A stretch of DNA of 64,000 nucleotides from Torpedo marmorata. Its lineage: Eukaryota. Shown in pieces: positions 1 to 61,019 of the stretch (its first letter is position 1; each line of letters begins with the position of its first letter). The stretch lies in contig OZ360227.1 in assembly GCA_977017645.1 (NCBI GenBank), positions 95,046,001 through 95,110,000 on the forward strand. Reading direction: 5' to 3'. Made by a program: the position numbers and the translations under genes. Below the pieces are notes generated by a model that searched no databases, was not told the DNA's origin, and saw only the letters and a list, made by a program, of their open reading frames with translations.

Positions 1-3000
1 CCGTCACGCCCCGGAGAGTAACACTCCCCACCGCCCCGTCCACGAGAGTAACACTCCCCACCGCCACGTCCCCGGAGAGTAACACTCCCCACCGCTCCGT
101 CCCCGGAGAGTAACACTCCCCACCGCCACGCCATTAGAGTAACATTCCCCACCGCCAAGCCCCTTAGAGTAACACTCCCAACCGCCACGCCCCGGAGAGT
201 AACACTCCCCACCGCCACGCCCCTGAGAGTAACACTCCCCAACGACCCGTCCCTGAGAGTAACATTCCCCACCGCCACGCTCCGGAGAGTAACACTCCCC
301 ACCGCCCCGTCCCCGAGAGTAACACTCCCCACCGCCACTCCCCGGAGAGTAACACTCCCCACCGCCATGCCCCGGAGAGTAAAACTCCCCACCGCCCCGT
401 CCCCAAGAGTAACACTCCCCTCTGCCCCGTCCCGGAGAGTAACACGCAGCCACCGCCACGCCCCTGAGAGTAACACTCCCCACCGCCACGCCCCGGAGAG
501 TAACACTCCCCACCGCTACTCCCCGGAGAGTAATACTCCCCACCGCAACGCCCCGGAGAGTAACACTACCCACCGCCACTCCACGGAGAGTAACACTCCC
601 CACCGCCATGCTCCGGAGAGTAATGTTCCCCACCGCCATGCACCGGAGTATAACGCTCCCCACCGCCACGCCCCTGGGAGTAACACTCCCATCCGCCACG
701 CCCCGGAGTGTAACACTCCCCCCCGCCACGCCCCGGAGAGTAAAACTCCCCTCCGACACGCCCCGGAGAGTAACACTCCCCACCGCCACGCCCCGAGAGT
801 AACACTCCCCACCGCCACGCCCCGGAGAGTAACACTCCCCTCCGCCACGCCCCGGAGAGTAACACTCCCCACCGCCACGTCCCGGAGAGTAACACTCCCC
901 ACCGCCACATCCCCGAGAGTAACACTCCCCACCGCCACGCCCCGGAGAGTAACACTCACCACCGCCACGCCCTGGAGAGTAACACTCCCAACCGCCAGGT
1001 CCCCGAGAGTAACACTCCTCACCGCCACGCCCCGGAGAGTAACACTCCCCACCGCCACGCCCCGGAGAGTAACACTCCCCACCGCCAGGTCCCCGAGAGT
1101 AATACTCCCCACCGCCACGCCCCGAGAGTAACACTCCTCTCCGCCACGCCCCGGAGAGTAACTCTCCCCACCGCCACGTCCCGGAGAGTAACACTCTCCA
1201 CCGCCACGCCCCGGAGAGTAACACTCCCCACCGCCACGCCCCGGAGAGTAACACTCCCCACCGCCAGGTCCCCGAGAGTAACACTCCCCACCGCCACGCC
1301 CCGGAGAGTAACACTCCTCTCCGCCACGCCCCAGAGAGTAACACTCCCCACCGCCACGTCCCGGAGAGTAACACTCCCCACCGCCACGTCCCCGAGAGTA
1401 ACAATCCCCAACGCCACGCCCCGGAGAGTAACACTTCCAACCGCCACGTCCCCGAGTCTAACAGTCCCCACCGCCACGCCCCGGAGAGTAACACTCCCCT
1501 CCGCCACGCCCCGGAGAGTAATACTCCCCACCGCCACGTCCCCGAGAGTAACACTCCCCACGGCCACGCCCCCGAGTGTAACACTCCCCACCGCCACGCC
1601 CTGGAGAGAAACACTTCCCACCGCCACGCCCCGGAGAGTAGCACTCCCCACCGCCCCGTCACCGAGAGTAACACTCCCCACCGTCACGCCCCGGAGAGTA
1701 ACAGTCCCCACCGCCACGCCCCGGAGAGTAACACTCCCCACCGCACCGTCCCCGACAGTAACACTCCCCACCGCTCCATCCCCGAGAGTAACACTCCCCA
1801 CCGCCACGCCCCAGAGAGTAACAATCCCAACCACCCCGTCCCCGAGAGTAACACTCTCCACCTCCCCGTGCCCGAGAGTAACACTCCCCAACGCCACGCC
1901 CCGGAGAGTAACACTCCCCACCACCCCGTCCCCGAGAGTAACACTCTCCACCTCCCCGTGCCCGAGAGTAACACTCCCCAACGCCACGCCCCGGAGAGTA
2001 ACACTCCCCACCACCACTCCCCGGAGTGTAACACTCCCCACCGCCACTCCCCGGAGTGAACCATTCCCCACCGCCCCGTCCCCGAGAGTAACCCTCCCCA
2101 CCGTCACGCCCCGGAGAGTAAAACTCCCCACAGCCCCGTCCCCGAGAGTAACACTCCCCACCGCCACGCCCCGGAGAGTAGCACTCCCCACCGCCCCGTC
2201 ACTGAGAGTAACACTCTCCACCACCACGCCCCGGAGAGTAAAACTCCCCACCGCCCCGTCCCCGAGAGTAACACTTCCCACCGCTCCGTCCCCGAGAGTA
2301 ACACTCCCAGGCACTACGCCCCGGAGAGTAACACTCCCCACCGCCACGCCCCGGAGAGTAACATTCCTCACCGCCAGGTCCCCGAGAGTAACACTCCCCA
2401 CCGCCATGCCCCGGAGAGTAACACTCCCCACCGCCACGCCCCGGAGAGTAACACTCCCCACCGCCTGGTCCCCGAGAGTAATACTCCCCAACGCCACGCC
2501 CCGGAGAGTAACACTCCCCACCGCCACGCCCCGGAGAGTAACAGTCCCCTCCGCCACGCCCTGGAGAGTAACACTCACCACCGCCACGTCCCGGAGAGTA
2601 ACACTCGCCACCGCCACGTCCCCGAGAGTAACACTCCCCACCGCCACGCCCCGGAGAGTAACATGCACCACCGCCACGTCCCCGAGAGTAACACTCCCCA
2701 CCGCCACGCCCCGGAGAGTAACAGTCCCCTCCGCCACGCCCTGGAGAGTAACACTCCCCACCGCCACGTCCCGGAGAGTAACACTCTCCACCGCCAGGTC
2801 ACTGAGAGTAACACTCCCCACCGCCACGCCCCGGAGAGTAACAATCCCCACCGCCATGCCCCGGAGAGTAACACTCCCCTCAGCCACGCCCCGGAGAGTA
2901 ACACTCCCCACCGCCACGTCCCGGAGAGTAACACTCCCCACACTCCCCACCGCCACATCCCCGAGAGTAACAATCCCCACCGCCACGCGCCGGAGAGTAA

Positions 3001-6000
3001 CACTGCCCACCGCCACGTCCCCGAGAGTATCACTCCCCACCGCCACGCCCCCGAGAGTAACACTCCCCACCGCAACGCCCTGGAGAGAAACACTTCCCAC
3101 CGCCACGCCCCGGAGAGTAACACTCCCCACCGCCCCGTAACCGAGAGTAACACTCCCCACCGTCACGCCCAGGAGAGTAACACTCCCCACAGCCTCGTCC
3201 CCGAGAGTAACACTCCCCACCGCCCCGTCCCCGAGAGTAACACTCCCCATGCCCCGTCCCGGAGAGTAACACTCCCCACCGCCACGCCCCTGAGAGTAAC
3301 CCTCCCCACCGCCACGCCCCGGAGAGTAACACTCCCAACCGCTACTCCCCGGTAAGTAATATTCCCCACCGCAACGCCCCGGAGAGTAACACTCCCCACC
3401 GCCACTCCCCGGAGAGTAACACTCCCCACCGCCACGAACCGGAGAGTAATGTTCCCCACCGCCACGCACCGGAGTATAACGCTCCCCACCGCCATGCCCC
3501 TGGGAGTAACACTTCCATCCGCCACGCCCCGGAGAGTAAAACTCCCCCCCGCCACGCCCCGGAGAGTAACACTCCCCTCCGACACACACCGGAGAGTAAC
3601 ACTCCCTACCGCCACCCCCCGAGAGTAACACTCCCCACTGCCACGCCCCGGAGAGTAATGATCCCCACCGCCACGTCCCCAGAGTGTAACACTGCCCACC
3701 GCCACTCCCCGGAGTGTAACACTGCCCACCGCCCCGTCCCCGAGAGTAACACTCCCCACCGTCACGCCTCGGAGAGTAACACTCCCCACCGCCCCATCCC
3801 TGGAGAGTAATACTCCCCACCGCCACGCCCCTTAGAGTAACACTCCCCACCGCCACGCCCCGGATAGTAATACTCCACACCGCCACGCCCTGGAGCGTAA
3901 CACTCCCCACCGCACTGTCTCCGGAGAATAACACTCCCAACCGTCACGCCCCGGAGAGTAACACTCCCCACCGCCCCGTCCACGAGAGTAACACTCCCCA
4001 CCGCCACGTCCCCGGAGAGTAACACTCCCCACCGCTCCGTCCCCGGAGAGTAACACTCCCCACCGCCACGCCATTAGAGTAACATTCCCCACCGCCAAGC
4101 CCCTTAGAGTAACACTCCCAACCGCCACGCCCCGGAGAGTAACACTCCCCACCGCCACGCCCCTGAGAGTAACACTCCCCAACGACCCGTCCCTGAGAGT
4201 AACATTCCCCACCGCCACGCTCCGGAGAGTAACAATCCCCACCGCCCCGTCCCCGAGAGTAACACTCCCCACCGCCACTCCCCGGAGAGTAACACTCCCC
4301 ACCGCCATGCCCCGGAGAGTAAAACTCCCCACCGCCCCGTCCCCAAGAGTAACACTCCCCTCTGCCCCGTCCCGGAGAGTAACACGCAGCCACCGCCACG
4401 CCCCTGAGAGTAACACTCCCCACCGCCACGCCCCGGAGAGTAACACTCCCCACCGCTACTCCCCGGAGAGTAATACTCCCCACCGCAACGCCCCGGAGAG
4501 TAACACTACCCACCGCCACTCCCCGGAGAGTAACACTCCCCACCGCCATGCTCCGGAGAGTAATGTTCCCCACCGCCATGCACCGGAGTATAACGCTCCC
4601 CACCGCCACGCCCCTGGGAGTAACACTCCCATCCGCCACGCCCCGGAGTGTAACACTCCCCCCCGCCACGCCCCGGAGAGTAAAACTCCCCTCCGACACG
4701 CCCCGGAGAGTAACACTCCCCACCGCCACGCCCCGAGAGTAACACTCCCCACCGCCACGCCCCGGAGAGTAACACTCCCCTCCGCCACGCCCCGGAGAGT
4801 AACACTCCCCACCGCCACGTCCCGGAGAGTAACACTCCCCACCGCCACATCCCCGAGAGTAACACTCCCCACCGCCACGCCCCGGAGAGTAACACTCACC
4901 ACCGCCACGCCCTGGAGAGTAACACTCCCAACCGCCAGGTCCCCGAGAGTAACACTCCTCACCGCCACGCCCCGGAGAGTAACACTCCCCACCGCCACGC
5001 CCCGGAGAGTAACACTCCCCACCGCCAGGTCCCCGAGAGTAATACTCCCCACCGCCACGCCCCGAGAGTAACACTCCTCTCCGCCACGCCCCGGAGAGTA
5101 ACTCTCCCCACCGCCACGTCCCGGAGAGTAACACTCTCCACCGCCACGCCCCGGAGAGTAACACTCCCCACCGCCACGCCCCGGAGAGTAACACTCCCCA
5201 CCGCCAGGTCCCCGAGAGTAACACTCCCCACCGCCACGCCCCGGAGAGTAACACTCCTCTCCGCCACGCCCCAGAGAGTAACACTCCCCACCGCCACGTC
5301 CCGGAGAGTAACACTCCCCACCGCCACGTCCCCGAGAGTAACAATCCCCAACGCCACGCCCCGGAGAGTAACACTTCCAACCGCCACGTCCCCGAGTCTA
5401 ACAGTCTCCACCGCCATGCCCCGGAGAGTAACACTCCCCTCCGCCACGCCCCGGAGAGTAATACTCCCCACCGCCACGTCCCCGAGAGTAACACTCCCCA
5501 CGGCCACGCCCCCGAGTGTAACACTCCCCACCGCCACGCCCTGGAGAGAAACACTTCCCACCGCCACGCCCCGGAGAGTAGCACTCCCCACCGCCCCGTC
5601 ACCGAGAGTAACACTCCCCACCGTCACGCCCCGGAGAGTAACAGTCCCCACCGCCACGCCCCGGAGAGTAACACTCCCCACCGCACCGTCCCCGACAGTA
5701 ACACTCCCCACCGCTCCATCCCCGAGAGTAACACTCCCCACCGCCACGCCCCAGAGAGTAACAATCCCAACCACCCCGTCCCCGAGAGTAACACTCTCCA
5801 CCTCCCCGTGCCCGAGAGTAACACTCCCCAACGCCACGCCCCGGAGAGTAACACTCCCCACCACCCCGTCCCCGAGAGTAACACTCTCCACCTCCCCGTG
5901 CCCGAGAGTAACACTCCCCAACGCCACGCCCCGGAGAGTAACACTCCCCACCACCACTCCCCGGAGTGTAACACTCCCCACCGCCACTCCCCGGAGTGAA

Positions 6001-9000
6001 CCATTCCCCACCGCCCCGTCCCCGAGAGTAACCCTCCCCACCGTCACGCCCCGGAGAGTAAAACTCCCCACAGCCCCGTCCCCGAGAGTAACACTCCCCA
6101 CCGCCACGCCCCGGAGAGTAACACTCCCCACCGCCCCGTCACTGAGAGTAACACTCTCCACCACCACGCCCCGGAGAGTAAAACTCCCCACCGCCCCGTC
6201 CCCGAGAGTAACACTTCCCACCGCTCCGTCCCCGAGAGTAACACTCCCAGGCACTACGCCCCGGAGAGTAACACTCCCCACCGCCACGCCCCGGAGAGTA
6301 ACATTCCTCACCGCCAGGTCCCCGAGAGTAACACTCCCCACCGCCATGCCCCGGAGAGTAACACTCCCCACCGCCACGCCCCGGAGAGTAACACTCCCCA
6401 CCGCCTGGTCCCCGAGAGTAATACTCCCCAACGCCACGCCCCGGAGAGTAACACTCCCCACCGCCACGCCCCGGAGAGTAACAGTCCCCTCCGCCACGCC
6501 CTGGAGAGTAACACTCACCACCGCCACGTCCCGGAGAGTAACACTCGCCACCGCCACGTCCCCGAGAGTAACACTCCCCACCGCCACGCCCCGGAGAGTA
6601 ACATGCACCACCGCCACGTCCCCGAGAGTAACACTCCCCACCGCCACGCCCCGGAGAGTAACAGTCCCCTCCGCCACGCCCTGGAGAGTAACACTCCCCA
6701 CCGCCACGTCCCGGAGAGTAACACTCTCCACCGCCTGGTCACCGAGAGTAACACTCCCCACCGCCACGCCCCGGAGAGTAACAATCCCCACCGCCACGCC
6801 CCGGAGAGTAACACTCCCCTCAGCCACGCCCCGGAGAGTAACACTCCCCACCGCCACGTCCCGGAGAGTAACACTCCCCACACTCCCCACCGCCACATCC
6901 CCGAGAGTAACAATCCCCACCGCCACGCGCCGGAGAGTAACACTGCCCACCGCCACGTCCCCGAGAGTATCACTCCCCACCGCCACGCCCCCGAGAGTAA
7001 CACTCCCCACCGCAACGCCCTGGAGAGAAACACTTCCCACCGCCACGCCCCGGAGAGTAACACTCCCCACCGCCCCGTAACCGAGAGTAACACTCCCCAC
7101 CGTCACGCCCAGGAGAGTAACACTCCCCACAGCCTCGTCTCCGAGAGTAACACTCCCCACCGCCCCGTCCCCGAGAGTAACACTCCCCATGCCACGCCCC
7201 GGAGAGTAACACTCCCCAACGCCCCGTCCCCGACAATAACACTCCCCACCGCTCCGTCCCCGAGAGTAACACTCCCCACCGCCACGCCCCAGAGAGTAAC
7301 AATCCCCACCGCCCCGTCCCCGAGAGTAACACTCCCCACCGCCACGCCCCGGAGAGTAACATGCACCACCGCCACGTCCCCGAGAGTAACACTCCCCACC
7401 GCCATGCCCCGGAGAGTAACAGTCCCCTCCGCCACGCCCTGGAGAGTAACACTCCCCACCGCCACGTCCCGGAGAGTAACACTCTCCACCGCCAGGTCAC
7501 CGAGAGTAACACTCCCCACCGCCACGCCCCGGAGAGTTACAATCCCCACCGCCACGCCCCGGAGAGTAACACTCCCCTCAGCCACGCCCTGGAGAGTAAC
7601 ACTCCCCACCGCCACGTCCCGGAGAGTAACACTCCCCACACTCCCCACCGCCACATCCCCGAGAGTAACAATCCCCACCGCCACGCGCCGGAGAGTAACA
7701 CTGCCCACCGCCACGTCCCCGAGAGTATCACTCCCCACCGCCACGCCCCTGAGAGTAACACTCCCCACCGCAACGCCCTGGAGAGAAACACTTCCCACCG
7801 TCACGCCCAGGAGAGTAACACTCCCCACAGCCTCGTCCCCGAGAGTAACACTCCCCACCGCCCCGTCCCCGAGAGTAACACTCCCCACGCCACGCCCCGT
7901 AGAGTAACACTCCCCACCGCCACGCCCCGGAGAGTAACACTCCCTAACGCCCCGTCCCCGACAATAACACTCCCCACCGCTCCGTCCCCGAGAGTAACAC
8001 TCCCCACCGCCACGCCCCAGAGAGTAACAATCCCCACCGCCCCGTCCCCGAGAGTAACACTCCCCACCGCCCCGTGCCCGAGAGTAACACTCCCCAACGC
8101 CCCGTCCCCGACAATAACACTCCCCACCGCTCCGTCCCCGAGAGTAACACTCCCCACCGCCACGCCCCAGAGAGTAACAATCCCCACCGCCCCATCCCCG
8201 AGAGTAACACTCCCCACCGCCTCGTGCCCGAGAGTAACACTCCCCAACGCCACAACCCGGAGAGTAACACTCCCCACCGCCACTCCCCGGAGTGTAACAC
8301 TCCCCACCTCCACTCCCCGGAGTGTAACACTCCCCACCGCCCCGTCCCCGAGAGTAACACTCCCCACCGTCACGCCCCGGAGAGTAAAAACTCCCCACAG
8401 ACCCGTCCCCGACAGTAACACTCCCCACCGCCCCGTCCCCGAGAGTAACACTCCCCACCGCCCCGTCCCCGAGAGTAACACTCCCCACCGTCACGCCCCG
8501 GAGAGTAACACTCCCCACCGCCCCGTCACTGAGAGTAACACTCCCCAGCACCACGCCCCGGAGAGTAAAACTCCACACCGCCCCGTCCCCGAGAGTAACA
8601 CTTCCAACCACTCCGTCCCCGAGAGTAACACTCCCAGGCACCACGCCCTGGAGAGTAACACACCCCACCGCCACGCCCCGGAGAGTAACACTCCCTACCG
8701 CCACGCCCCGGAAAGTAACACTCCCCACCGCCAGGTCCCCGAGAGTAATACTCCCCACCGCCATGCCCCGGAGAGTAACACTCCCCACCGCCACGCCCCG
8801 GAGAGTAACAGTCCCCTCCGCCATGCCCTGGAGAGTAACACTCCCCACCGCCACGTCCCGGAGAGTAACACTCTCCACCGCCACGTCCCCGAGAGTAACA
8901 CTCCCCACCGCCACGCCCCAGAGAGTAACACTCCCCACTGCCACGTCCCCGAGAGTAACACTCCCCACCGCCACGCCCAGGAGAGTAACACTCCCCTCCG

Positions 9001-12000
9001 CCACGCCCCGGAGAGTAACACTCCCCACCGCCACGTCCCCGAGAGTAACACTCCCCACCGTCACGCCAAGGAGAGAAACACTCCCCACCGCCACAGCCCG
9101 GAGAGTAACACTCCCCACCGCCCCGTCCCCGAGAGTAACACTCCCCACCGTCATGTCCCGGAGAGTAATACTCCCCACAGCCCCGTCCCCGAGAGTAACA
9201 CTCCCCACCGCCCTGTCCCCGAGAGTAACACTCCCCACCGCCACGCCCCGGAGAGTAACACTCCCCACCGCCACGCCCCGGAGAGTAACACTCCCCACCG
9301 CCCCGTCCCCGAAAGTAACACTCCCCACCGCTCCGTCCCCGAGAGTAACACTCCCCACCGCCACGCCCCTGAGAGTAACACTCCCCACCGCCCCGTCCCC
9401 GAGAGTAACACTCCCCACCGCCCCGTGCCCGAGAGTAACACTCCCCAACGCCACGCCCCGGAGAGTAACACTCCCCACCGCCACTCCCCGAAGTGTAACA
9501 CTCCCCAACGCCACTCCCCGGAGAGTAACACTCCCCACAGCCCCGTTCCCGAGAGTAACACTCACCACCGCCCTGTCCCCGGAGAGTAACACTCCCCACC
9601 GCCACGCCCCGGAGAGTAACTCTCCCCATCGCCACGCCCCTTAGAGTAACACACCACACCGCCACGCCCCGGAGAGTAACACTCCCCACCGCCACGCCCC
9701 TGAGAGTAACACTCCCCATTGCCCCGTCCCAGAGAGTAACATTCCCCACCGCCACGCCCCGGAGAGTAACACTCCCCATCTGCCCCGTCCCGGAGAGTAA
9801 CACTCCCCACCGCCACGCGTCTGAGAGTAACACTCCCCATTGCCACGCCATGGAGAGTAACACTCCCCACCGCTACTCTCCGGAGAGTAATACTCCCCAC
9901 CGCCACGCCCCGGAGAGTAACACTCCCCACCGCCACTCCCCGGAGAGTAACGCTCCCCACCGCCACGCTCCGGAGAGTAATGCTTCCCACTTCCACGCCC
10001 TGGAGAATAACGGTCCCCACCGCCACGCCCCGGGGAGTAACACTCCCCTCCGCCACGCCCCGGAGAGTAACACTCCCCTCCGCCACGCCCCGGAGAATAA
10101 CACTCCCCACCGCCACGCCCCGGAGAGTAACATTCCCCACCGCCAAGTCCCCGAGAGTAACACTCCCCACCGCCACGCCCCGGAGAGTAACACTCCCCAC
10201 CGCCACGTCCCCGAGAGTAACACTCCCCACCGCCACGCCCCGGAGAGTAACACTCCCCACCGCCACGCCCCGGAGAGTAACACTCCCCACCGCCAGGTCC
10301 CCGAGAGTAACACACCCCACCGCCACGCCCCGGAGAGTAACATTCCCCACCGCCACACCCCGGAGAGTAACATTCCCCACCGCCACGTCCCCGAGAGTAA
10401 CACTCCCCACCGCCACGCCCCGGAGAGTAAAACTCCCCACCGCCACACCCCGGAGAGTAACACTCCCCACCGCCCCGTCCCCGAAAGTAACACTCCCCAC
10501 CGCTCCGTCCCCGACAGTAACACTCCCCACTGCATCGCCCCAGAGAGTAACACTCCCCACCACCCCGTCCCCGAGAGTAACACTCCCCACCGCCCCGTGC
10601 CCGAGAGTAACACTCCACAACGCCACGCCCCGGAGTTTAACACTCCCCACCGCCACTCCCCGGAGTCTCACACTCCCCACCGCCCCGTCCCCGAGAGTAA
10701 CACTCCCCACCGTCACGCCCCAGAGAGTAACACTCCCCACAGCCGCGTCCCCGAGAGTAACACTCCACACCGCTCTGTCCCCGAGAGTAACACTCCCCAC
10801 CGCCACGCCATGGAAAGTAACACTCCCCACCGCCCCGTCACAGAGAGTAACACTCCCCACCGCCACGCCCCGGAGAGTAACACTCCCCACCGCCACGTCC
10901 CCAAGAGTAACACTCCCCAGCGCCACGCATCGTAGAGTAACACTCCCCAGCGCCACGCCCCGGAGAGTAACACTCCCCACTGTCATGCCCCGGAGAGTAA
11001 CACTCCCCACCGCCAGGTCCCCGAGAGTAACACTCCCCACCGCCACGCCCCGGAGAGTAACACTCCCCACCGCCACGTCCCGGAGAGTAACACTCCCCAC
11101 CGCCAGGTCCCCGAGAGTAACACTCCCCACCGCCACGCCCCGAGAGTAACACTCCCCACCGCCAGGTCCCCGAGAGTAACACTCCCCACCGCCACGCCCC
11201 GGAGAGTAACACTCCCCACCGCCACGCCCCGGAGAGTAACACTCCCCACCGCCATGCCCCAGAGAGTAACACTCCCCACCGCCACGTCTCCGAGAGTAAC
11301 ACTCCCCACCGCCACGCCCCGGAGAGTAACACTCCCCACAGCCACGCCCCGGAGAGTAACACTCCCCACCGCCACGCCCCGGAGTGTAACACTCCCCACC
11401 GCCACGCCCCGGAGAGTAACACTCCCCACCGCCACGCCCCGGAGAGTAACTCTCCCCACTGCCACGTTCCGGAGAGTAACACTCCCCACCGCCCCGTCCC
11501 CGGAGAGTAACACTCCCCACCGCCACGCCCCGGAGAGTAACACTCCCCACCGCCACGTCCCGGAGATTAACATTCCCCACCGCCACGCCCCGGAGAGTAA
11601 CACTCCCCACCGCCACGCCCCGGAGAGTAACACTCCCCACCGCCCCGTCCCCGGAGAGTAACACACCCCACCGCCACGCCCTGGAGAGTAACACTCCCCA
11701 CCGCCCCGTCCCCGGAGAGTAACACTCCCCACCGCCCCGTCCCCGTAGAGTAACACTCCCCACCGCCACGCCCCGGAGAGTAACACTCCCTACCCCACGC
11801 CACCGAGAGTAACACTCCCCACCGCCACGCCCCGGAGAGTAACACTCCCCACCGCCACGCCCCGGAGAGTAACACTCCCCTCCGCCACGTCCCGGAGAGT
11901 AGCAATCCCATCCGCCACGTCCCGGAGAGTAGCAATCCCCACCGCTACGGCCTGGAGAGTAACACTCCCCACCGCCACGCCCCGGAGAGTAACACTCCCT

Positions 12001-12194
12001 ACCCCACGCCACCGAGAGTAGCACTCCCCACCGCCACTCCCCGGAGAGTAACACTCCCCACCGCCACGCCCCGGAGAGTAACACTCCCCCCCGCCACGCC
12101 CTGTAGAGTAACACTCCCCACCGCCACGCCCCGGAGAGTAACACTCCCCACCGCCACGCCCCGGAGAGTAACACTCCCCACCGCCACGCCCCCG
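1..12194. repeat. 30-bp GC-rich tandem satellite/minisatellite, consensus GAGAGTAACACTCCCCACCGCCACGCCCCG, about 400 copies, open at the window's left edge
   Basis: The monomer is directly visible throughout, with 29/31-bp variants. The six-frame ORFs are 10-aa repeats (RRVTLPTATP, ESNTPHRHAP, GVAVGSVTLR, GGGECYSPGR, WGVLLSGAWR). Confidence 0.99.
3941..7189. repeat. Higher-order duplication of 1-3249 (period 3940 bp) within the satellite
   Basis: The same order of rare variant monomers recurs at an offset of 3940, with only about 10 substitutions seen by eye. ORFs 4..1674 and 3944..5614 are near-identical. Confidence 0.95.
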
Positions 12195-12350
12195 AATTGC
12201 CCCCATTGGGCAGATGGGATGGGAGTGGGACCCCGGGAGCACGCGACCAACAATCGACGCCGCGCGCATGCGTGGTTGACCGAGTACAAAGCAGGAAGCG
12301 TTGCGCTGACCGTCAGCGTTTATAAATAGGTTCGGGTGGGCAGTGGGTCC
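12195..12350 (+). promoter_or_regulatory. CpG-island-type proximal promoter of CERKL
   Basis: Inverted CCAAT (ATTGG 12205-12209), NRF1-like GCGCATGCG (12264-12272), ETS-like CAGGAAG (12292-12298), palindrome CGCTGAC-C-GTCAGCG (12304-12318) and TATAAATA (12321-12328), 70 bp before the ATG. Confidence 0.65.
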
Positions 12351-12390
12351 ATGTTCCCAGTTACAACATTTCAGTATTTTATTTTTGAAT

Positions 12391-12670
12391 ATGTTTGAAG
12401 GCCAACGGCGAGGAGTCCCTGCGGGGGACGCCTGGTGTGAGGCGGGCGATGGTTGCAGCCCGCGGCGGCCGGTCGTGGATGCCCGGAGGAAGGATCCCCT
12501 GGCGTGGTTCGGAGGGGCGAAGGAGGTGGCCGAGGAAGGCTGCACCATCCCGGGCGCTCCGGACGAACCGATCTGCAGGGGGATATTTGAGATTGAGAAA
12601 AGAAGCTGCGACGTGATGCTGACTCCCAACAGGCTCGAATGGACGGCAATTGAGCCGGAGAAACCTGTAG
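12391..12670 (+). CDS. CERKL: Ceramide kinase-like protein, coding exon 1 (phase-1 donor)
   Basis: Translation ...ICRGIFEIEKRSCDVMLTPNRLEWTAIEPEKPVG matches human CERKL [34 protein letters not shown]. The donor GTAG|GTGCGT falls after the first base of the same Gly codon at which human exon 1 ends (c.238). Confidence 0.92.
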
Positions 12671-13040
12671 GTGCGTGGTCATGACGGGAGCAGTAGCGGA
12701 ATTTGCACCGGGACTCGTACGTTGCACGGAGAGGGGGAGCGGGAGGGGGAGTACGAAATGGGATCCGTGCTCAAACTCAGCTGTGGCAGTGCAACAGAGA
12801 AAGGGCTAGTTTACATGTTCTTTTAGTTCATGTTCAGGTAAGCCAAGTTAACCAGATTCCGAAAAATCCATTGAAAGTATTTTTTTGAAAACAAAGTTCT
12901 AGTGATTTAAAACACTTCGTTTAACGTAAAAAAAAAATCGATAGCCCGACGCAGAAGTTCAACGGAAAAGACCCAAGTATAAATGTACGTCGGAAGTCGT
13001 GTCTGTGATTTAACTTTGTGCAAATCAGAAATTTACATAA

Positions 13041-13150
13041 ATTCAAAGATTCCTTTATTTTCATGTACTAATACACAACATTCATCAACTTTTGCCTGCC
13101 GTAAAGGCACACAGAGGCACCACTAACATTGCCCTGCGCCCCCAACAGTA
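13041..13150 (-). mobile_element. Retroposon 3' tail fragment; related copies at about 13680-13800 and 15290-15400
   Basis: Shared motif TTTATT(G)TCA(T/C)GTA(A)TA...TTTTG(T/C)CTGC...TG(C/T)CCxGCGCCCC..ACAG in three places. Confidence 0.5.
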
Positions 13151-13934
13151 AGAGAAACAAGAGTCCCTTCAGAGACACCAAGTGTGTATGAATTCGCCTC
13201 CAGCGCTCCCACAGTCTCTACAACTGTATGGCCTCTTGTTCGATCCATTGGCAAACCCGAGCTCCCAGATCCGAACTCCAATGCAATCGGGTAGCTTTCA
13301 GCACCCGAGGCCCTTATGGGAGCCCTTCTTGGGCTCTGCACCCTCCAATCTCTGCCCTGATGATACCTGGTTTCCATGAGCCATTCTCTGGCAGCCTGTG
13401 TGGGTCCTTCAACTGCTGAGCCTCTCTCCCTGGTCCACTGCCATGCTCACCTTTCCTGCTGGGTGACCTTGAACTCTTTTACTCTAACTTTGTGGTTAAA
13501 TTTCATCTTTCCTTCACCATTCTGGTAATTCTTTGCACTTCCTTGAAGAACCTTGAGGAGCAGGTTTCCAAGAACAATGGTGAGGCTCAGCATGTGACTG
13601 CTGAAGGCAAGCCTGTGAATATCTCGTGAATATCTGTTACCTCTTTAAATTCCTAGCATCTAGAGGCTACTGCTCAAAGACAAGATTCAATTTATTGTCA
13701 TGTAATAAAAACAGTGTCATATTACACAAAATTGCTTTTGTCTGCTGTAAGGCAGACAGATTTGCCATCGGCAGAAATTGCCTGAAGTGCCTCTTACAGT
13801 CAGCAAAAGAGAATCCCCCCCCCCTGTCACCAAGTATCCATGGATTAGCCCCCAGCGCTCCCGCAGCCACACCGAGTCCAATCCAAACCATCGGCAACCC
13901 GAGCTCCAGATCTGAACCTCTCATCTTCACTCTT

Positions 13935-16503: not shown

Positions 16504-17267
16504 CCGTATATTTCGGTGTATAAGTCGAGTTTTGAAACCCTCAAAAATCGCGACTTATACGCCAGATATACTTTTGAGACCTTAAAATCAGATCAAAAAC
16601 CAGTCCACGCCAATTCGGCGTATAGGTCGACCCATGAAAAACTGATTCGGCGTATAGGTCGACGCTGGAAACACCTCCCCACCGCCGGCGCCGCCTCTCC
16701 CCGACACCTCCCCACCGCTGAGCGCCACCATAAACCACCCAGACATTCTACAATTGTAGACCCCGAGCTCCCCGCTCCTGCCCGGGAGAACGAGCTCCCC
16801 GCTCCTGCCCGGGAGAACGACGTCGCTGCTCCTGCCCGGGAGAACGAGTCCCCGCACCTGCTCGGGAGCCAACACGTACCGTGGTTCCTGCACCGAGCAC
16901 ACTTGGGCAGCGAGGCGACTTCTTCAATGAGGACAGCACCGCACCCGATGTGGAGAATGGATTTGCCCGTCGCCGACTCTGACTGCAGCCGAAGCTGAAG
17001 ACTTGGACCCAGCTCCGTTTGGCATCTTCCCGGCCAGAAGCAAAGGTTTTTTTTACTTTTTTTTTAAAACTTACTTGCTTAATTTACAGCTTTGTAACTT
17101 GGCGATTGGGGTGTTGTAACAAATTTTGGGTTGTTGCTGGGAGGCCCGGACAGCCTGAAAATTGGGGGTCGACTTATACGCCGGATATACAATAAAAACC
17201 ATTAAAATGAGGCTGAAAAAGGGGGGTTGACTTATCTGCCGGTCAACTTATACGCCGAAATATACGG
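16504..17267. mobile_element. Non-autonomous Tc1/mariner-group (Tc2/pogo-like) DNA transposon
   Basis: TIRs CCGTATATTTCGG(T/C)GTATAAGT. The right flank is TA and the left is TG (mutated TA). Subterminal CGACTTATACGCC repeats and an internal 27-bp x3 repeat at about 16765-16850. Confidence 0.85.
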
Positions 17268-27956: not shown

Positions 27957-30900
27957 CACTGAACAATGAAGGCTTTGCTTCCTGAACACTTTTGGGTGTA
28001 TTTTATAGATTTTGGGCTACTGATCACGAAAATCACCTTAAAATTTTCTATCACGTACAGTTTTTTTCAGATATAATCTAACTTCCAAACTATATCCAGG
28101 TGATTGCCAACGAGCTTCAAGCATACAAAACCATGAAGTGCAATATGTCATTGAAAATTCATTTTCTGCATTCACACTTGGACTTCTTACCTGCTGATCT
28201 TGGTGAAAGGTTTCACCAGGACATTGCAACCATGAAAAAGCGGTATCAGGGTGTTATAAATTCAAACCAGCAACGACAGAAGACGCAATGCAAAAGGGGT
28301 AAAATTGAAATTTATATTTATTAAAGACAATTAAACATATAATTTCACAACAATTTTACCCCTTTTGCATTGCGTCTTCTGTCGTTGCTGGCTTGAATTT
28401 GTAACAAAATTGGGGGCTCGTCCTTGGGATTTGAATTAAAAAATCCATCTTGGTAATTGAAGGAATCCCAGTCTGGTTTAAGACATTCCTTTTGTAAAGC
28501 TAATTAAAAGCTAGTGTGTGTGTAACGAAAAACCAGCAACAATGGATGTAGGAAAATTTTTGGAATCACCTGAACCTGATACTTTAAAAAAGGCGAAAAA
28601 GGAACAGTTAGTGGCTATAGCAACAGAGTTGGGCATTGCTTCTGTAAAACCATTTATGAAAAAGGCAGAGATTGGGAGAAAAATTATCAAATACTATATA
28701 AAAGAAAAAAAGTTTGAGGCGAGCGTGTTGGAGCAGTTTCAAAAGGGTAAACCTTCTGAAAACATACAGTTGGAACTAAAGAAATTGGAATTGGAGGCAG
28801 CCAGGGAACAAAAGAAATTAGACACGGAATTGGAACAAAAGAAATTAGACACGGAATTGGAACAAAAGAGATACGAGAACGATGAGAAAAATAGGAGATA
28901 TGAGCTGGAAAAGATGAGGTTGGAAAATGAGAGGAGACAAGAAGAGCACCAAGATCAAATTTGTCATCCTGCTGAGGGGTTTTTGACTAGTAGAGAAGTT
29001 AGGTTGGTTCCTCCATTTGAGGAGGCAGAAATAGATAAGTACTTCCAGCATTTTGAGAAGGTGGCTGTGAAATTAAAATGGCCACAAGACCAATGGTCTC
29101 TTATGTTACAAAGTGTAATAAAAGGAAAAGCCCAGCAAGCTTATTCTATTCTTACCACGGAGCAAGCTGCTGATTATGAAATGGTGAAAAAGGCTATACT
29201 CCAGGCTTGAGTTAGTACCAGAGGCTTATAGACAGAAGTTCAGAAATTTAAAAAGATCAGCAACCCAATCTTACACAGAGTTTGCCTATGAAAAGGTTGT
29301 GTTTTGACCGGTGGTGCACATCTAAGGCGGTAAACAATGATTACAATCAATTGAGCGAATTGATAATAATCGAGGAGATTAAAAGGTGTGTTCCTGAGGA
29401 TATTACGGCACACTTAGATGAAAAGGAGGTGAAAACTTGGCAAAATTCAGCTAATTTAGCAGATGAATATGCTTTAACCCACAAGCCTAAGATGACGTCA
29501 GGCAGAATTTTCCAAAAGGTCACTAGATAATCCCAAGCAAGTGAAAAGTAAATTTGGAAGTGGTGTTAAGGAAAGGGATGAAGGAAAGTGGAAAAGGGAA
29601 AACCCTTCGGGTCCCATTTGTAGGAAGGCTGGTCATATGCTAGCAAGTTGTCCAGTGTTGAAAAAGAAGAGAGAAAAGGATGCAACACCTAATGCTTGTA
29701 TTCAGAGTGAGAAGAGGCATAACACTCAGGAAGGAGATAAATTTACTGACAAAGTTAGATGTATTTAAACCTTTTGTGACTGATGGTTTTGTTTCAGTTA
29801 AGGCAGGATCAAAACAAGTTCCAGTGAAAATCTTGTGAGATACTGGAGCTGCTCAGTCACTTGTGTTAGATAGTGTCTTGGAATTTTGTGAAGCTACTGA
29901 CACCGGTGACATAAATTTAATTAAAGGAATTGGGGGTGATGTTGAGTCCATTCCTTTGCACAAAATAGTGTTGGACTCAGACTTGGTGGAAGGACCTGTT
30001 ATAATAGGAGTGAGATCAGAGTTGCCAGTAGAAGGAGTCTCACTGTTGCTTGGCAATGACTTGGCCAAGGGTAAAGTAGTTCCTGCAGTGCAAATGACTA
30101 CTAAGCCAGTCATTGATAAGTCAGAGAAAGACTCTGATATTTATCTGGCATGTGCCATAACCAGGGCCATGTCTAAGTAAAATGTCACTGTAGAAAAGGC
30201 AGGGGAAAATAACTTGGTGAAAGAAAAAGTCAGTGATAATCAAGAACACCTGGAAAAGGTTGAGCAATCTCCTGTGTTACACCCATCCACTGATAAGACA
30301 CCTAAAGGCACAGATTTGTCACTATCCCGACAGGAGCTAATAGCAAGGCAAAAGGACGATCCTGATCTTGCTGAGGTGAGGGATAAGGTTCTCTCTGAAG
30401 AGGAGATTAAAAAGGTGCCAGTGGGTTATTATGGAAAAGATGGGGTGTTGATGAGAAAGTGGAGACCATGTGATGTTCCTGCCAATGAATAATGGGCAGT
30501 AGTGCAGCAGGTTGTGATCCCTAAAGTATATAGGGATACAATAATAACTTTGGCTCATAGTACACCCTTAGGTGGTCACCTTGGGGGTGAAGAAAACTAT
30601 AAGGAAGATAATGAAACAATTTTATTGGCCCAGTTTGAGAAGGGAGGTTGTAAGCTTTTGCCGGGCCTGTCACACTTGTCAGGTGGTGGGTAAACCTAAT
30701 CAGGGTCCCCCGGTGGCACCCTTGCAACCTATCCCTGCTTTCAGTGAGCCTTTTTCGAGAGTAATTGTGGACTCTGTTGGCCCATTGCCCAAAACCAAAG
30801 CGGGGAATGAGTATTTGTTAACAATTATGTGTGCAGCCACCAGATTTCCAGAGGCCATTCCTCTGAGAAACATTAAAGCAAAGTCAATTGTAAAGGCTAT

Positions 30901-33733
30901 GGTAAAGTTTTTCACCTTTGTAGGTTTGCCAAGGGAAATTCAATCAGATCAGGGCAGTAATTTCATGTCAGGTGTTTTCCAACAAGTGGTTGATGGACTG
31001 GGAGTTAAACAGATTGTATACTCTGCGTACCATCAGAAAGTCAAGGGGCCTTGGAGAAGTTCAATTCGACTTTGAAAAACATGATTAGAACCTATTGTTG
31101 TGAGAAGGAAAAGGATTGGGATGAGGGGGTTCATTTGTTGTTATTTACAGTGAGGGAATCTGTCCAAGAATCACTTGGTTTTAGTCCATTCGAGTTAGTT
31201 TTCGGACATGAGGTGAGAGGTCCTTTAAGATTATTAAAAGAACAGTGGATTAATAGTGATGTGCATTTAAATCTGTTAGATTATGTTTCAAAATTTAAGG
31301 ATCGGTTGAATAGGGCTTGTGAGATGGCAAAGGAGAATTTAAAGGCCACTCAACAGAGAATGAAGGTTTGGTATGATCGAAAGGCCAAGATGAGAACTTT
31401 TAAACCTGGTGAGAACGTATTAGTTCTGTTTCCCATCCATTCAAACCCTCTTAGGGCTAGATTTTCAGGACCCTATAGAGTTCAGTCAAAAATTAATGAT
31501 GTCACCTATGTCATAGAAACACCTAATCGCAGACGAGACACACAGGTCTGTCATGTGAATATGATTAAGCCATATTTTGAACAGGTGTCGCAAAAAGGGA
31601 CTGAACATTTACCAGAGGTGCTGGTTATTGACAGGAGTAAGGAGGAGACGGATAAAACCAGTTTCAGAGAGGGTCATGGGACTGTTAATTCTCTGAGTTA
31701 TGTAGTAGGACAGGGGAAGTTGGCGCCAGTAGAGGCAAAGGTTGTGACTATTTCCGAGTTCCCTGTTCCAACTGGTAAGAAAACTCTGAGGAGGTTCCTG
31801 GGAATGATTGGCTACTACCGCAAGTTCTGTAAAAACTTTGCTGTTCTTGCGCTCCCTCTCACAAATTTGCTTAGAAAGAAAGAAAAATTTGTATGGTCGA
31901 CAGGTTGTCAGGAAGCATTTGTCAAATTGAAAGCATGTTATGCCACCAACCTGTGCTTAAGTCACCTACTTTAGAACAGCCCATTTTCTTTAGCCGTGGA
32001 TGCCAGCGATGAAGCTGTGGGCGCGGTGCTGTTACAGAAGAAGAATGAAGAGGACATTGAACTTCTTCGAGAAGTAGGATACCGGATGGTCAATGATCAT
32101 CAAAGGAATTATTCAAACATAGAAAAAGAGTTGTTGGCTCTACAACACTTTGATGTTTATATCTGTACAGCTCAAAAACCACTCATAGTGTATACTGACC
32201 TAATTGATTGGTTTTTCTTTGTAAAGTGAAAAATAAGAATTGACGGTTGTTGAATTGGAGTCTAATTTTGCAAGAATATGATTTGGTAATAACACATAAA
32301 AGGGAAAGATAATGTAATTGCTGATTGTGTTTCTAGATGCTAAACTTTGTAAATGAAAATAGTTAATATTTTATGTTTGTGGATGAACAGTGTGGGTTTT
32401 GTTTATATTGTAACACCTCAATTTCTAAAATTTTGTTTTTGCAGACCAAAATTTTCTTTGTGGGTGGGAGGTGTTATGGACCATGACTGACAGTTTGGAC
32501 TGCGGACGGTAAGCAGGAAGGATGAAGTTTTTTTTTTGGAGTACACACTGGGACCTGGTACTGAAAGAGTTAACTTGTCCTTGTATTTACCAGAGAGAGA
32601 CATCAGGGGGAGACAAACTGTGAAAGGATACTTTGGTGTGAAACTTTGGAAGAAGGAAGCTAGGGAAACTCTCTCTCTACTATAAGGCCTGAAGTGGAAA
32701 ACTAAATCAGTGGCAGTTTTGGAGTTGCAAAGGCGGGAGAACTCAGCAGGATCCAGGTTTGTGCATCCCAGAGAACAAGTGGGGAGAATAGCACAGAGTC
32801 TCTTGAATCAGAAAAGTCCAGGCTTGTGTATCCCAGGGGAAACGGCTGGGAGAAAAACAAGGCCTGATGATTCGGCAGAATCCTGAGTTGAGAACAGCTT
32901 TTGTGAGGAACCGGCTGTGAAATCCAAGTATACGCCTTAATCCAAAACGGATCTGAATTCGCAATCCTTGTGAAAACACAAAGGAAAGTCATCAGAGAAG
33001 AAAAGCAAGCCAAGTATTCGTAAGCATAAACAGTCATTGTCTCTCTCCAATGTTCATTAAGAAGTCCTTCTTGCCAGCACACAGAGCTGAATTTGGACCC
33101 TGAACATAGAGAGTGAATTTTTGTGGACTGTATTATTTTTTTTTTTTTGACTGACTTGTTTTTATGACTGACCTGGGGTTTTTGGGGAAAGTTTTTCCAT
33201 TTTTACATGAGGGTTGGGCACAGACTGTAATGGTCTGGGCTTTATATATACACACACACACCTTTTAGATAAGAATAGTGTTTATAGACGTTTATAGTGG
33301 GGTTAATTGTTGTGAAATTATATGTTTAATTGTCTTTAATAAATATAAATTTCACTTTTACCCCTTTTGCATTGTGTCTTCTGTCATTGCTGGTTTGAAT
33401 TTGTAACAAAATTGGGGGCTCGTCTGGGAACAACTGGAATCCATCAATGCTGGCTGACTATTGTTGGACTCTGACACGAGAGGCATCAGATGATGAGTAC
33501 AAACGAAAATCAGTGGCAAAACATTTTTAGGTCAGTTAAACTAACGCAATGTGTCAGCGTCATTATGCAATTAAACATGCTAAATTCAATAAAAGTTAAT
33601 TTAATGTTTCTCCAACTTATGTGATACAGCAAATCTGAAATTATCTTTGCGTTCAGCTTGAAGTTGTCTATCATAATCCCCAATTTTTTTTTTTCAGGAA
33701 GCAAGCCTTTTGAAAAAATTTTGTTGTCCAGTA
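27957..33733 (+). mobile_element. Chapaev3-like (CMC) DNA transposon, internally deleted, split by an LTR element
   Basis: Transposase C-terminus CNMSLKIHFLHSHLDF...ERFHQDIATMKKRYQG|NWNPSMLADYCWTL. Termini CACTGAACAA / TTGTCCAGTA share an inverted AAGGCTT(T)GCTTCCTGAA motif. 3-bp TTA TSD. Confidence 0.75.
28252..33430 (+). mobile_element. Gmr1-like gypsy LTR retrotransposon (gag/SCAN-CCHC, PR, INT, partial RT, RNase H), degraded
   Basis: tRNA-Pro PBS TGGGGGCTCGTCC at 28411, gag 28518-29768, PR DTGAAQS at about 29840. INT (HxxxxGGH..C..C, IVDSVGPLP, SDQGSNF, GPY) at 30500-31580 lies upstream of the RT C-terminus (RRFLGMIGYYRKFC) and RNase H (DASDEAVGAVL). PPT at about 32461-32471; 3' LTR 32472-33408 (TG..CA). 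Confidence 0.92.
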
Positions 33734-46494: not shown

Positions 46495-46792
46495 ACCTCA
46501 AAGTCCCCCACCACCCAGGCCATGCCCTCTTCACTCTGCTACCATTGGGGGGAAAAAGGTACAGGAGCCTAAAGATGAGCACTCAACGACACAAGGACAG
46601 CTTCTTCCCCGCTGCCATCAGATTCCTGAATAATCAATGAACCAGACACTGCCTTACTTTTCGTGCACTATTGTTTATAATTTTTTTTATAGTAATGTCG
46701 TAAGATGGTTATAATATGGATGTTAATTGCACTATGATGCTGCCGCAAAACACCGAATTTCATGACTTGTTCATGACAAATTCTGATTCTGA
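46495..46792 (+). mobile_element. Rex/Babar LINE 3' end
   Basis: PHHPGHALFTLLP..KRYRSLK...DSFFPAAIRFLN followed by a (ATTCTG)n tail. Confidence 0.88.
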
Positions 46793-48139
46793 AGCTGCCT
46801 TGGGTAATTTGGAAGGTCCTCATGTTTTGCAATCAATCTTTTAATGTATACTGTCTTTACCTATATCCCTTGTAGGACAGCAAGGATGCCCTTGGTGCAA
46901 TGCATACTGTGCTGTAATATCTCTCTTCATTTGTGCAGACCTTTCTAGTTTCACCAGTTGATAATGTTTGCCTCAGCAGGTAAAATTGTGTGACATTGTT
47001 GTTGTCACGTTTGCTTCATTGTTCCTCCTCATTCACTCTGTGCTCTACACTTGCATCAACTGTAAGCTATGAGAGGGACATGATTAACATCTGCATTTGG
47101 AATCAAGTATAATCAGAGACAGATGACTGTTTTTGGCAGTAAGAGGGAGTGATGTATTGAAACAAATTGATTTATTAAAAATAAATGAATGACATTTGGC
47201 TATTTGTGATACTGGAGAGGAGTTTGAATACCAAGTAATACATCTTTAGAAATGTTCATCTTTGTGAATAACGGTTATTATTTCTGCATATGAATCATTC
47301 TGAAAATGTGTTAAGGGGAAGTACAAGCTTCAAAAATAATTACACAACCCCAGACAATCACAGTTGTAAAGGACTGAGAATTAGAGAAAGGTTGCAATTC
47401 TAAGCAGGCCAAAGACGCAGCCAGATCTTATTACTATCAAATCAGTGGAACTGAAACATTTTAGTTTACCCTCAAAGGTTCATTATCATTGTCAGCAGGA
47501 GCAGACATTTTCACTTCCACCTCATTAACCACTTTCCCCTTCAAAAAAAAAAGGCATATGGTGGTACAAACCAAGGTACAGTATTAGAGAAGAATAGCTC
47601 TTGTAAATTACAGCAAACATTTTTCTTTTATTCCACTTAAAAAGATTGATACATGGAACAAAACTCAATATTTCAGATTCTGTGACCTAGTGTTCTATAA
47701 TTTATTTGCATGAATGGCATTTGTAGTCTTTAGTGAAGCAAGTTAATCTAAGCAACTTGGAAACCAAATTACACATGTAAACACAACGCTATAGGAACAA
47801 AACCAATATTGAGCACAGAAATACGATGAAAGAGAAACAATGATTTGCACAGAGATGAACAACAGCAAGGATATTAGGACATAGCTTGTTCCCTTTGCTT
47901 CATTTTAGCACTGTCAAATCTTAGTCTATCCAGTGTTAGTGAGAAGTTTGTTTACTAGCTACAGTGGAAGTGAATTTTTAAAAAAAATTGGAATTGAATA
48001 GAACTGATAATTCCTGAATTAACAAAAGAAAATTGAGATGAAAATAGAAAATGCTGAAAAAAGCTCAAATATTACTAATGAAAAATCATCACCTGAACTT
48101 TCTAATCGGTTTCATTGTCTGAATGCTCCTTAATTTTAA

Positions 48140-54649: not shown

Positions 54650-54962
54650 CAAGCATACGCCTAAATCAGTGGTATACTGATCTGAACAGACAATCCTTAT
54701 GAACACCCAAGAAGGGGACGTCATCAGAGAAGAAAACAAGTATTTGTAAGCATAAACAGTCATGGTCTCTCTCCAACGTTCATTCAGAAGTACTTCTACC
54801 AGACTCAGAGCTGAAGTTGAAGCCTGAACTTAGAGTGAATTTTGTAGACTGTATTATCCTTTTTTTTGACTGACTTGTTTTTTATGACTGACCTGGGGTT
54901 TTTGGGGAAAGTTTTTCCATTTTTACATAAGGGTTGGGCACAGACTGTAATGGTCTGGGCTT

Positions 54963-55037
<75 letters not shown>

Positions 55038-55182
55038 TTTAGATAAGAATAGTGTTTATAGACGTTTATAGTGGGGTTAATTGTTGTGAAATTATATGTT
55101 TAATTGTGTTTAATAAATAGTAATTTCAATTTTACCCCTTTTGCATTGCGTCTTCTGTCGTTGCTGGTTTGATTTTGTAACA
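54650..55182 (+). mobile_element. 5'-truncated solo LTR of the Gmr1-like family
   Basis: Collinear with about 32925-33408 and ends ...TTGTAACA with no PBS after it. Confidence 0.9.
54966..55035. repeat. (AC)n microsatellite of about 35 units inside the solo LTR
   Basis: Directly visible perfect repeat. Confidence 0.98.
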
Positions 55183-60344: not shown

Positions 60345-61019
60345 TTCAGAATCAGATTCAGAATTTATTGTCATGAACAAGTCATGGAATTCGGTGTTTT
60401 GCGGCAGCATCATAGTGCAAACATTCATATTAATACCATCTTACGACATTACTATTGAAAACATATATAAATAATAGTGCACGAAAAGTAAGTCAGTGTC
60501 TTTGGTTCATTGATTATTCAGGAATCTGATGGCAGCGGGGAAGAAGCTGTCCTTGTGCCATTGAGTGCTCGACTTTAGGCTCCTGTACCTTTTTCCGATG
60601 GTAGCAGAGTGAAGAGGGCATGGCCTGGGTGGTGGGGGTCTTTGGGGATAGAGGCTGCTTTTTTAAGACACCGTCTCGTGTAGATGTCCTCGATGGAGTG
60701 AAGTTTGGTGCCTGTGATGTCACAGGCCGAGTTAACAACCCTCTGGAGTTTATTCTTGTCCTGAGAGTTGGCGCCTCCATACCAGGCAGTGATGCAACCA
60801 GCCAGAATGCTCTCCACGGTACACCTGTAGAAGTTTACGAGAGTCTTCGGTGACATACCGAATCTCCTCAGACACCTCACAAAGTATAGCCGCTGGTGAG
60901 CCTTCTTTGTGATTGCATCAACGTGGAGGCTCCAGGACAGATCCTCGGAGATGTTGACACCCAGGAATTTGAAGTTTTACCCTCTCCACTACTGAGCCCT
61001 CGATGAGGACTGGGTCGTG
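60345..61019 (-). mobile_element. Rex/Babar LINE 3' fragment, same young family as 50420-51142
   Basis: Near-identical ORF (FYRCTVESILAGCITAWYGG...) and a microsatellite-like tail. Confidence 0.92.

Follow-up and report, generated by a model that had tools for sequence, protein, structure and literature searches.

A 30-bp GC-rich minisatellite of 12 kb or more against the CERKL promoter in an assembled contig of Torpedo marmorata

The insulin gene variable number tandem repeat (VNTR; INS/ILPR) reportedly has a 14-bp unit, extends up to ~3 kb and lies a few hundred bases from the start, and the promoter VNTR of human XRCC5 is said to carry Sp1 elements in its unit. Here we analyse a 64,000-nt stretch of Torpedo marmorata DNA (GCA_977017645.1, contig OZ360227.1, 95,046,001-95,110,000 of the forward strand; hereafter the window), in which a 30-bp GC-rich minisatellite runs up to what appears to be the promoter of the gene CERKL. 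Several described systems invite comparison with this array. TPMT provides a GC-rich human promoter example (PMC7789872), human VNTRs are overrepresented in CpG islands and in the first 1 kb upstream of genes (PMC8096271), and many of them show an association with methylation or expression (bioRxiv 2020.12.16.423078). WDR7 and similar VNTRs have been found to duplicate in blocks and, occasionally, to show polarity (PMC8327921). In addition, GC-rich tandem-repeat regions abound in elasmobranch genomes (bioRxiv 2025.06.08.657570; PMC10620051).

Like the XRCC5 and TPMT VNTRs, the array is a GC-rich proximal-promoter minisatellite with unit subtypes and, as in XRCC5, an Sp-family site in its unit. 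Its units stand head to tail, the Sp/KLF assignment is a motif match, and the position against a putative proximal promoter holds in the assembled sequence. The human cases have a handful of units, with polymorphism and links to expression shown, whereas the array has at least 406 units and old internal divergence, and is known from sequence alone. With the insulin gene VNTR it shares a long, G-rich minisatellite, prone to form G-quadruplexes (G4), just upstream of a gene; its unit, however, is 30 bp long and CpG-rich, the array is at least four times longer, and it lies directly against the core promoter. Human promoter and CpG-island VNTRs, including those associated with expression (eVNTRs) and methylation (mVNTRs), resemble it in position, unit length class and possible transcription-factor sites (PMC8096271; bioRxiv 2020.12.16.423078), but the array measures 12 kb or more, belongs to another lineage and has been described only from its letters. 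WDR7-type VNTRs share the internal block duplications and the hint of a younger end, although the polarity of the array comes from one post hoc test on one haplotype. The array therefore appears at most promoter-VNTR-like, and would be a new case within the known class of promoter VNTRs. Our preferred explanation, to which we assign a probability of about 0.62, is that it is a very large, old, locus-specific minisatellite abutting the CERKL promoter, with no sign of selection on its Sp/KLF boxes. A description of this array was not found among the top matches in the Creative Commons-licensed PMC and bioRxiv literature, supplements excluded; the supplements of genome papers could contain it. 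The array and its internal parts are as follows.

1-12195, no strand: 30-bp GC-rich minisatellite array of 406 units, open at the left edge of the window, C-rich on the plus strand and G4-prone on the minus strand
3941-7190, plus strand: second copy of an internal duplication, offset by 131 units (3,940 bp); the first copy is at 1-3,250
6851-7970, plus strand: older internal duplication with a period of ~25 units (758 bp), seen as unit-label runs at offsets 24-25; limits approximate
11000-12195, plus strand: promoter-proximal 40 units, the nearest to consensus of the 40-unit stretches from 3,941 on

Tandem Repeats Finder reports a single uninterrupted array over 1-12,192 with a period of 30 and 405.4 copies, and wrap-around alignment resolves 406 units, 194 of them distinct and the last cut off at ~12,195, with a mean identity of 91.7% to the consensus CCGCCACGCCCCGGAGAGTAACACTCCCCA. 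The commonest unit, which contains GCCACGCCCC, accounts for 41 of the 406, and unit positions 6, 9 and 13 set the subtypes ACG (205 of 405 units), CTC (64), ATC (38) and ATG (21). A first-pass annotation of this DNA had described a satellite of 12 kb or more at 1..12330; the uninterrupted array stands, but it ends at 12,195 and the final 135 bp are promoter. Units other than the truncated last one are 29-37 bp long, and there is therefore no transposon inside the array, as had been claimed; this lack says little, because unequal exchange purges insertions from tandem arrays. The GC content is 0.65-0.68 with a strong C skew, the G4Hunter mean is -1.11, and 42% of 25-bp windows in the array score -1.2 or below, compared to 2% that reach |1.2| elsewhere in the DNA. 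The observed/expected (O/E) ratio for CpG is 0.97 for the array and 1.03 for the promoter island, and drops to 0.36 past position 13,000; the array lies above the usual CpG-island thresholds (GC > 50%, CpG O/E > 0.6, > 200 bp) over 12.2 kb. CCGG, which had been said to lie in many monomers, indeed occurs 208 times. The unit was not found in the remaining 51.8 kb of the window (best match 17 bp, E 0.11), its likeness to the intron repeats is at chance level, and shuffled sequences fold as well as its GAGT-AAC-ACTC stem (z -0.71). Metagenome contigs gave 0 matches to the exact pattern of the unit, such contigs being uninformative for a ray. A 916-aa minus-strand open reading frame (ORF) across the array was rejected as a product of a stop-poor repeat.

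The internal history of the array is visible in its duplications. Units 1-106 are repeated 131 units further on, and global alignment of 1-3,250 with 3,941-7,190 shows 9 substitutions in 3,250 bp (0.28%) and no gaps. A 39-bp variant recurs at 2,901, 6,841 and 7,599, and a 3-unit repeat and the older ~25-unit duplication are nested within the 131-unit one. These nested duplications of 3, 25 and 131 units are evidently the product of unequal exchange at several scales and not a regular higher-order repeat, and they bear out, within one haplotype, the view of the array as a length-dynamic tandem repeat. Had the 131-unit block arisen by simple tandem duplication, a further 25 units or more would be expected to the left of the window. 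At the promoter end, the last 40 units carry 0.95 mismatches per unit, compared to a minimum of 1.25 and a mean of 1.48 in other 40-unit stretches, in a test picked after the trend had been noticed; the last 20 units are unexceptional, 15% of windows being equally low. As a separate observation, non-CpG C/G sites in the array show 87 transversion events, many of them C to A, compared to 60 transition events.

The exact Sp/KLF decamer is intact in 142 of the 406 units and missing from the other 264; 163 copies of a looser Sp/KLF core are present, and CCCCGCCCC has zero occurrences in the array. The mouse KLF9 consensus, GCCACGCCCMCY, begins with GCCACGCCC, and the unit motif fits it across its first 9 bases (PMC5390390); this match upholds, at the level of the motif, the identification of an Sp/KLF site. 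The phrase "built from Sp/KLF GC boxes" is thus right about the motif in the unit but overstated for the array, given these counts. Among 20,000 shuffled units, 0.1% contain the exact decamer, 6-7% have an 8-bp Sp/KLF core and 38-41% have some box of the GC/CACC type; these odds concern one event, the origin of the unit, and a motif picked after being noticed, and they mildly favour an origin of the unit from a real site. Mutation events per site number 9.8 in the box and 10.4 at other C/G sites, per-unit divergence is 7.0% in the box and 5.5% at C/G sites outside it, and 47.5% of the last 40 units have intact boxes, compared to a mean of 33% and a maximum of 52.5% elsewhere. Moreover, a box-breaking subtype with T at position 9 is common (143 of 405 units), and A/T sites change at 2.9% compared to 5.2% for non-CpG C/G sites. 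The units appear to decay as mutation bias predicts, and the box seems to receive no extra protection. The best fit of the unit to a CTCF consensus covers 10 of 14 positions, and 54% of shuffles are equally good (p 0.54). The rheostat or insulator role proposed in the first-pass annotation is unsupported: the boxes lack extra conservation, most units are without the exact box, and the CTCF fit is at shuffle level.

The right end of the array and the sequence beyond it contain the following features.

12183-12192, plus strand: last Sp/KLF box (GCCACGCCCC; motif per PMC5390390); the array breaks 2-3 bases past it
12205-12209, minus strand: CCAAT box, a motif match only
12219-12299, plus strand: stretch homologous to codons 1-27 of the Narcine CERKL model, 17 minimal mismatches in 81 nt
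12321-12326, plus strand: TATAAA hexamer, starting 126 bp past the array
12196-12800, no strand: CpG island of promoter and exon 1, continuous with the array; 200-bp windows over 12,201-12,601 have GC 0.53-0.69 and O/E 0.95-1.10
12391-12670, plus strand: CERKL coding exon 1, 93 codons plus one base by homologue alignment, with a GT donor at 12,671

The CCAAT box is presumably NF-Y-like, and we take 12,264-12,272 to be an NRF1-like site and 12,293-12,298 an ETS core. CERKL is confirmed as the gene beside the array by exon 1, whose 93 residues show 70% identity over the whole query to the ceramide kinase-like proteins of Mobula and Pristis. Of 91 candidates, 11 meet the E 0.001 threshold; all 11 belong to sharks and rays, and 10 bear the name ceramide kinase-like. 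Exon 1 alone gives no Pfam match. The start codon lies 195 bp past the array end. On both strands of the window, 12,219-12,299 is the best place for the Narcine residues, with 17 mismatches compared to 26 at the next place (mean 43.4, standard deviation 3.5), for a fit length of 27 picked by eye and with BLASTP alone being weak (E 0.008). Authentic CERKL 5' DNA therefore begins within 25 bp of the array, and the claim that the array stands directly against the CERKL promoter holds in the assembled sequence. Words common with Narcine (PLxWF, CDVMLTPNRLEWT) suggest an electric ray.

Two sequencing runs from other organisms, X1 (RNA by guess, from one study) and X2 (DNA by guess), were compared over 12,110-13,400; contigs of X1 cannot show a start. 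One X1 contig covers 12,275-12,666 with 13 differences, running through the TATAAA and ending 4 bases from the donor. The last unit of the array had been noted to lie where a proximal GC box would be expected; its box is 14 bp before the CCAAT box and ~85 bp before the left end of this contig. Narcine residues past the fit, which ends before the hexamer, would be unable to encode TATAAA if the model is colinear. The hexamer is probably not a core element and, if X1 is RNA, lies within the 5' untranslated region (UTR) of at least some transcripts. An earlier placement of the array end ~130 bp before a TATA box is therefore right as to distance, but the TATAAA is doubtful as core promoter; a TATA-less CpG-island promoter, with the array still nearer the start, is a likelier reading than a TATA-driven one. 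The break of the last unit immediately past its box makes it plausible that the unit arose locally, from a GC box of the promoter.

X2 comes from a relative that is ~96.5% identical in single-copy DNA (6 of 172 and 12 of 339 letters differ). Its depth is 4.6-6.9 on unique contigs, 720-820 summed on three array units and 46,000 on an intron transposon end, which places the unit ~60 times below that transposon end in abundance, although depth does not measure copy number. When the array alone is simulated as a de Bruijn graph, the result is 90-157 single-copy units at 40-60-bp cut-offs, and X2 shows 111-168. This only says that the relative has hundreds of units and not a major satellite. The unit is probably confined to few loci and not a genome-wide satellite, given an abundance in the relative that roughly corresponds to one array. 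Five of the seven variant strings of X2 are absent from this array, as expected from separate evolution after the split. The unit evidently predates the split from this ~3.5% diverged species, the unit and not its place being shown there.

CpG sites number 2.56 per unit (3 in the consensus), in agreement with a claim of about 3 per monomer; the accompanying claim of little TpG decay has to be qualified, decay being present at 1.6-2.1 times background. The ratio of CpG to non-CpG transitions in the array is 1.63-1.87 by unit counts and 2.06 by events (44/998 vs 60/2,806). In pairwise comparisons it is 1.86 for array units compared to 3.0 pooled over 11 transposon pairs (range 1.0-13.8) picked from 37 self-BLAST rows, and it reaches 5.5 in the 5 least diverged pairs, a subset picked afterwards. 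By this indirect measure, the methylation signature typical of repeats, which marks the classical heterochromatic satellite, is not what the array displays (1.6-2.1 vs 3.0-5.5). Germline methylation of the array looks to be below that of nearby transposons, low but not nil. Young amplification would also preserve CpG, but the transition ratio is independent of age. GC-biased conversion was considered as the cause of CpG retention and is unsupported, A/T sites changing no faster than C/G sites.

Several observations weigh against reading the array as an ordinary locus-specific minisatellite. With a 35-bp cut-off the simulation yields ~230 single-copy units, and counting every short unitig brings the figure to 900-1,010, the depth comparison being rough. 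The consensus-like promoter-proximal units could be expected from selection as well as from recent growth at that end. CpG transitions make up 3 of the 9 differences in the young duplication, and 2 of the 11 transposon pairs have ratios of 1.0 and 1.9, the methylation contrast not being clean. The array-promoter junction is crossed by no X1 or X2 contig or read and 12,198-12,241 is uncovered; coverage holes (three array units in X1, 12,198-12,329 in X2) prove nothing. Likeness of the unit to the remaining promoter is not significant (p 0.53), and the array has been long persistent beside a promoter.

A member of a dispersed or subtelomeric satellite, brought beside CERKL by insertion or rearrangement and mostly heterochromatic, would explain why the unit bears no likeness to the promoter, and elasmobranch genomes have many GC-rich simple-tandem-repeat regions, rising toward chromosome ends (bioRxiv 2025.06.08.657570; PMC10620051); in addition, the upstream end of the array and NEUROD1 both lie outside the window. 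We nevertheless consider this origin unlikely, as the abundance in X2 is that of about one array and far below the intron transposon end, the other 51.8 kb of the window lack the unit, and CpG retention is unlike that of methylated repeats. An assembly artefact, whether a misjoin at the junction or a length inflated by a false 3.94-kb duplication of two haplotypes, is improbable even though the 3,250-bp copies differ at 9 sites only, a level that two alleles could show, and no X1 or X2 read bridges the junction. There is no gap or N at that point, the older 25-unit duplication and the shared rare variants argue for real duplications and against random errors, the array would exceed 8 kb even without the duplicate, and a misjoin exactly at the promoter edge, with a family of about one-array abundance, seems unlikely.

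Selection for a regulatory function, in which Sp/KLF boxes act as a copy-number- or methylation-dependent rheostat of CERKL or as a barrier between NEUROD1 and CERKL, is likewise distinctly unlikely. Such a function would accommodate the rarity of the decamer among shuffled units and its KLF9 match, the spacing of the last box from the CCAAT box and the X1 contig, the low CpG decay and the better preserved promoter-proximal units. In humans, the RIL promoter is shielded from methylation by an additional Sp1/Sp3 site (PMC2515197), and thousands of human VNTRs are tied to local expression and methylation (bioRxiv 2020.12.16.423078). The boxes, however, lack extra conservation, their intact fraction in the last 40 units falls within the range seen elsewhere, the box-breaking T at position 9 is common, and the CTCF-like fit is not above shuffles. 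As for a barrier, mouse NEUROD1 lies upstream of Cerkl in the same direction, and CERKL may contain NEUROD1 enhancers (PMC7425692). Synteny of cerkl reaches zebrafish, but NEUROD1-driven CERKL transcripts are reported only in amniotes, including chicken, and not in zebrafish or frog (PMC3650063), which speaks against such a function.

Under the preferred explanation, a minisatellite bordering the CERKL CpG-island promoter of an electric-ray-like batoid on its upstream side would have begun with the duplication of a 30-bp piece carrying one Sp/KLF box. Rounds of unequal exchange on several scales would then have expanded it to 406 units or more, as the nested duplications indicate. The CpG island would have been lengthened by 12 kb or more, with germline methylation that, judged from mutation spectra, may be below that of nearby transposons. 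By analogy with mammalian work, Sp/KLF factors may bind the 140-160 intact boxes and so help to keep the array open and, more speculatively, the open GC-rich island may attract recombination that feeds array growth. Any effect on the CERKL level would most likely be a small by-product and not a selected dial. The array is unusually long for a promoter-adjacent position and looks like ordinary repeat growth, not a tuned control device. If so, it is a marked example of how long a minisatellite can become beside an active vertebrate promoter with no obvious silencing, and it could serve as a marker in electric-ray genomics.

PRDM9-independent hotspots occur at hypomethylated promoter-like features (PMC11161765) and may offer a growth engine for the array. 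Among cartilaginous fishes, PRDM9 appears to be partial in those species that have been studied, with partial orthologues reported for elephant shark and a weak SSXRD domain for whale shark (PMC5519329). A self-amplifying CpG island, in which the boxes keep at least 12 kb unmethylated in the germline, promoter-type, PRDM9-independent recombination feeds in new units from the promoter side, and the CERKL (or NEUROD1) level in electric rays depends on the length of the array as on a giant natural dial for a retinal gene pair, is decidedly improbable. Were it true, the locus would provide a natural test of many Sp/KLF sites keeping a satellite-sized repeat unmethylated, and a test of promoter-type recombination hotspots feeding repeat growth, at a human-retinal-dystrophy locus.

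The remainder of the window is occupied by a single feature.

12671-64000, plus strand: CERKL intron 1, > 51 kb, with abundant remains of long interspersed nuclear elements (LINEs) and long terminal repeat (LTR) elements

Five homologues align to exon 1 only, and intron 1 is therefore longer than 51 kb; exon 2 was not found in the window to position 64000. The intron is crowded with transposons, as had been reported: of 24 ORFs listed, 16 were scanned and 9 have Pfam matches, 7 of these being reverse transcriptase, endonuclease, zf-RVT or integrase, and self-BLAST gives 37 internal repeat matches. Exon 2 is skipped in Pristis and Heptranchias CERKL isoforms (P0003, P0007), which could account for the X1 contig ending at the exon 1 donor. 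At the 5' end of the gene, 12,351-12,398 holds an out-of-frame upstream ATG and a short ORF overlapping the CERKL start codon; the X1 contig has A at 12,353, and the ATG is not shared. In the Narcine CERKL model (P0009) the MFEG start seen in other rays is missing, and the protein starts from an ATG further upstream that is homologous to 12,219; either the usual start has been lost in Narcine or the model translates 5' UTR. Within the intron, a 27-bp GC-rich tandem repeat of 3.9 copies at 16,764-16,868, in a CpG-richer patch, is unrelated to the 30-bp unit. A decayed LTR retrotransposon with integrase, SH3 and gag-like ORFs occupies 28,250-33,400, its right end being repeated at 54,676-55,182, and young LINE copies at 50,416-51,088, 60,352-61,019 and 46,496-46,793 share 90-93% mutual identity.

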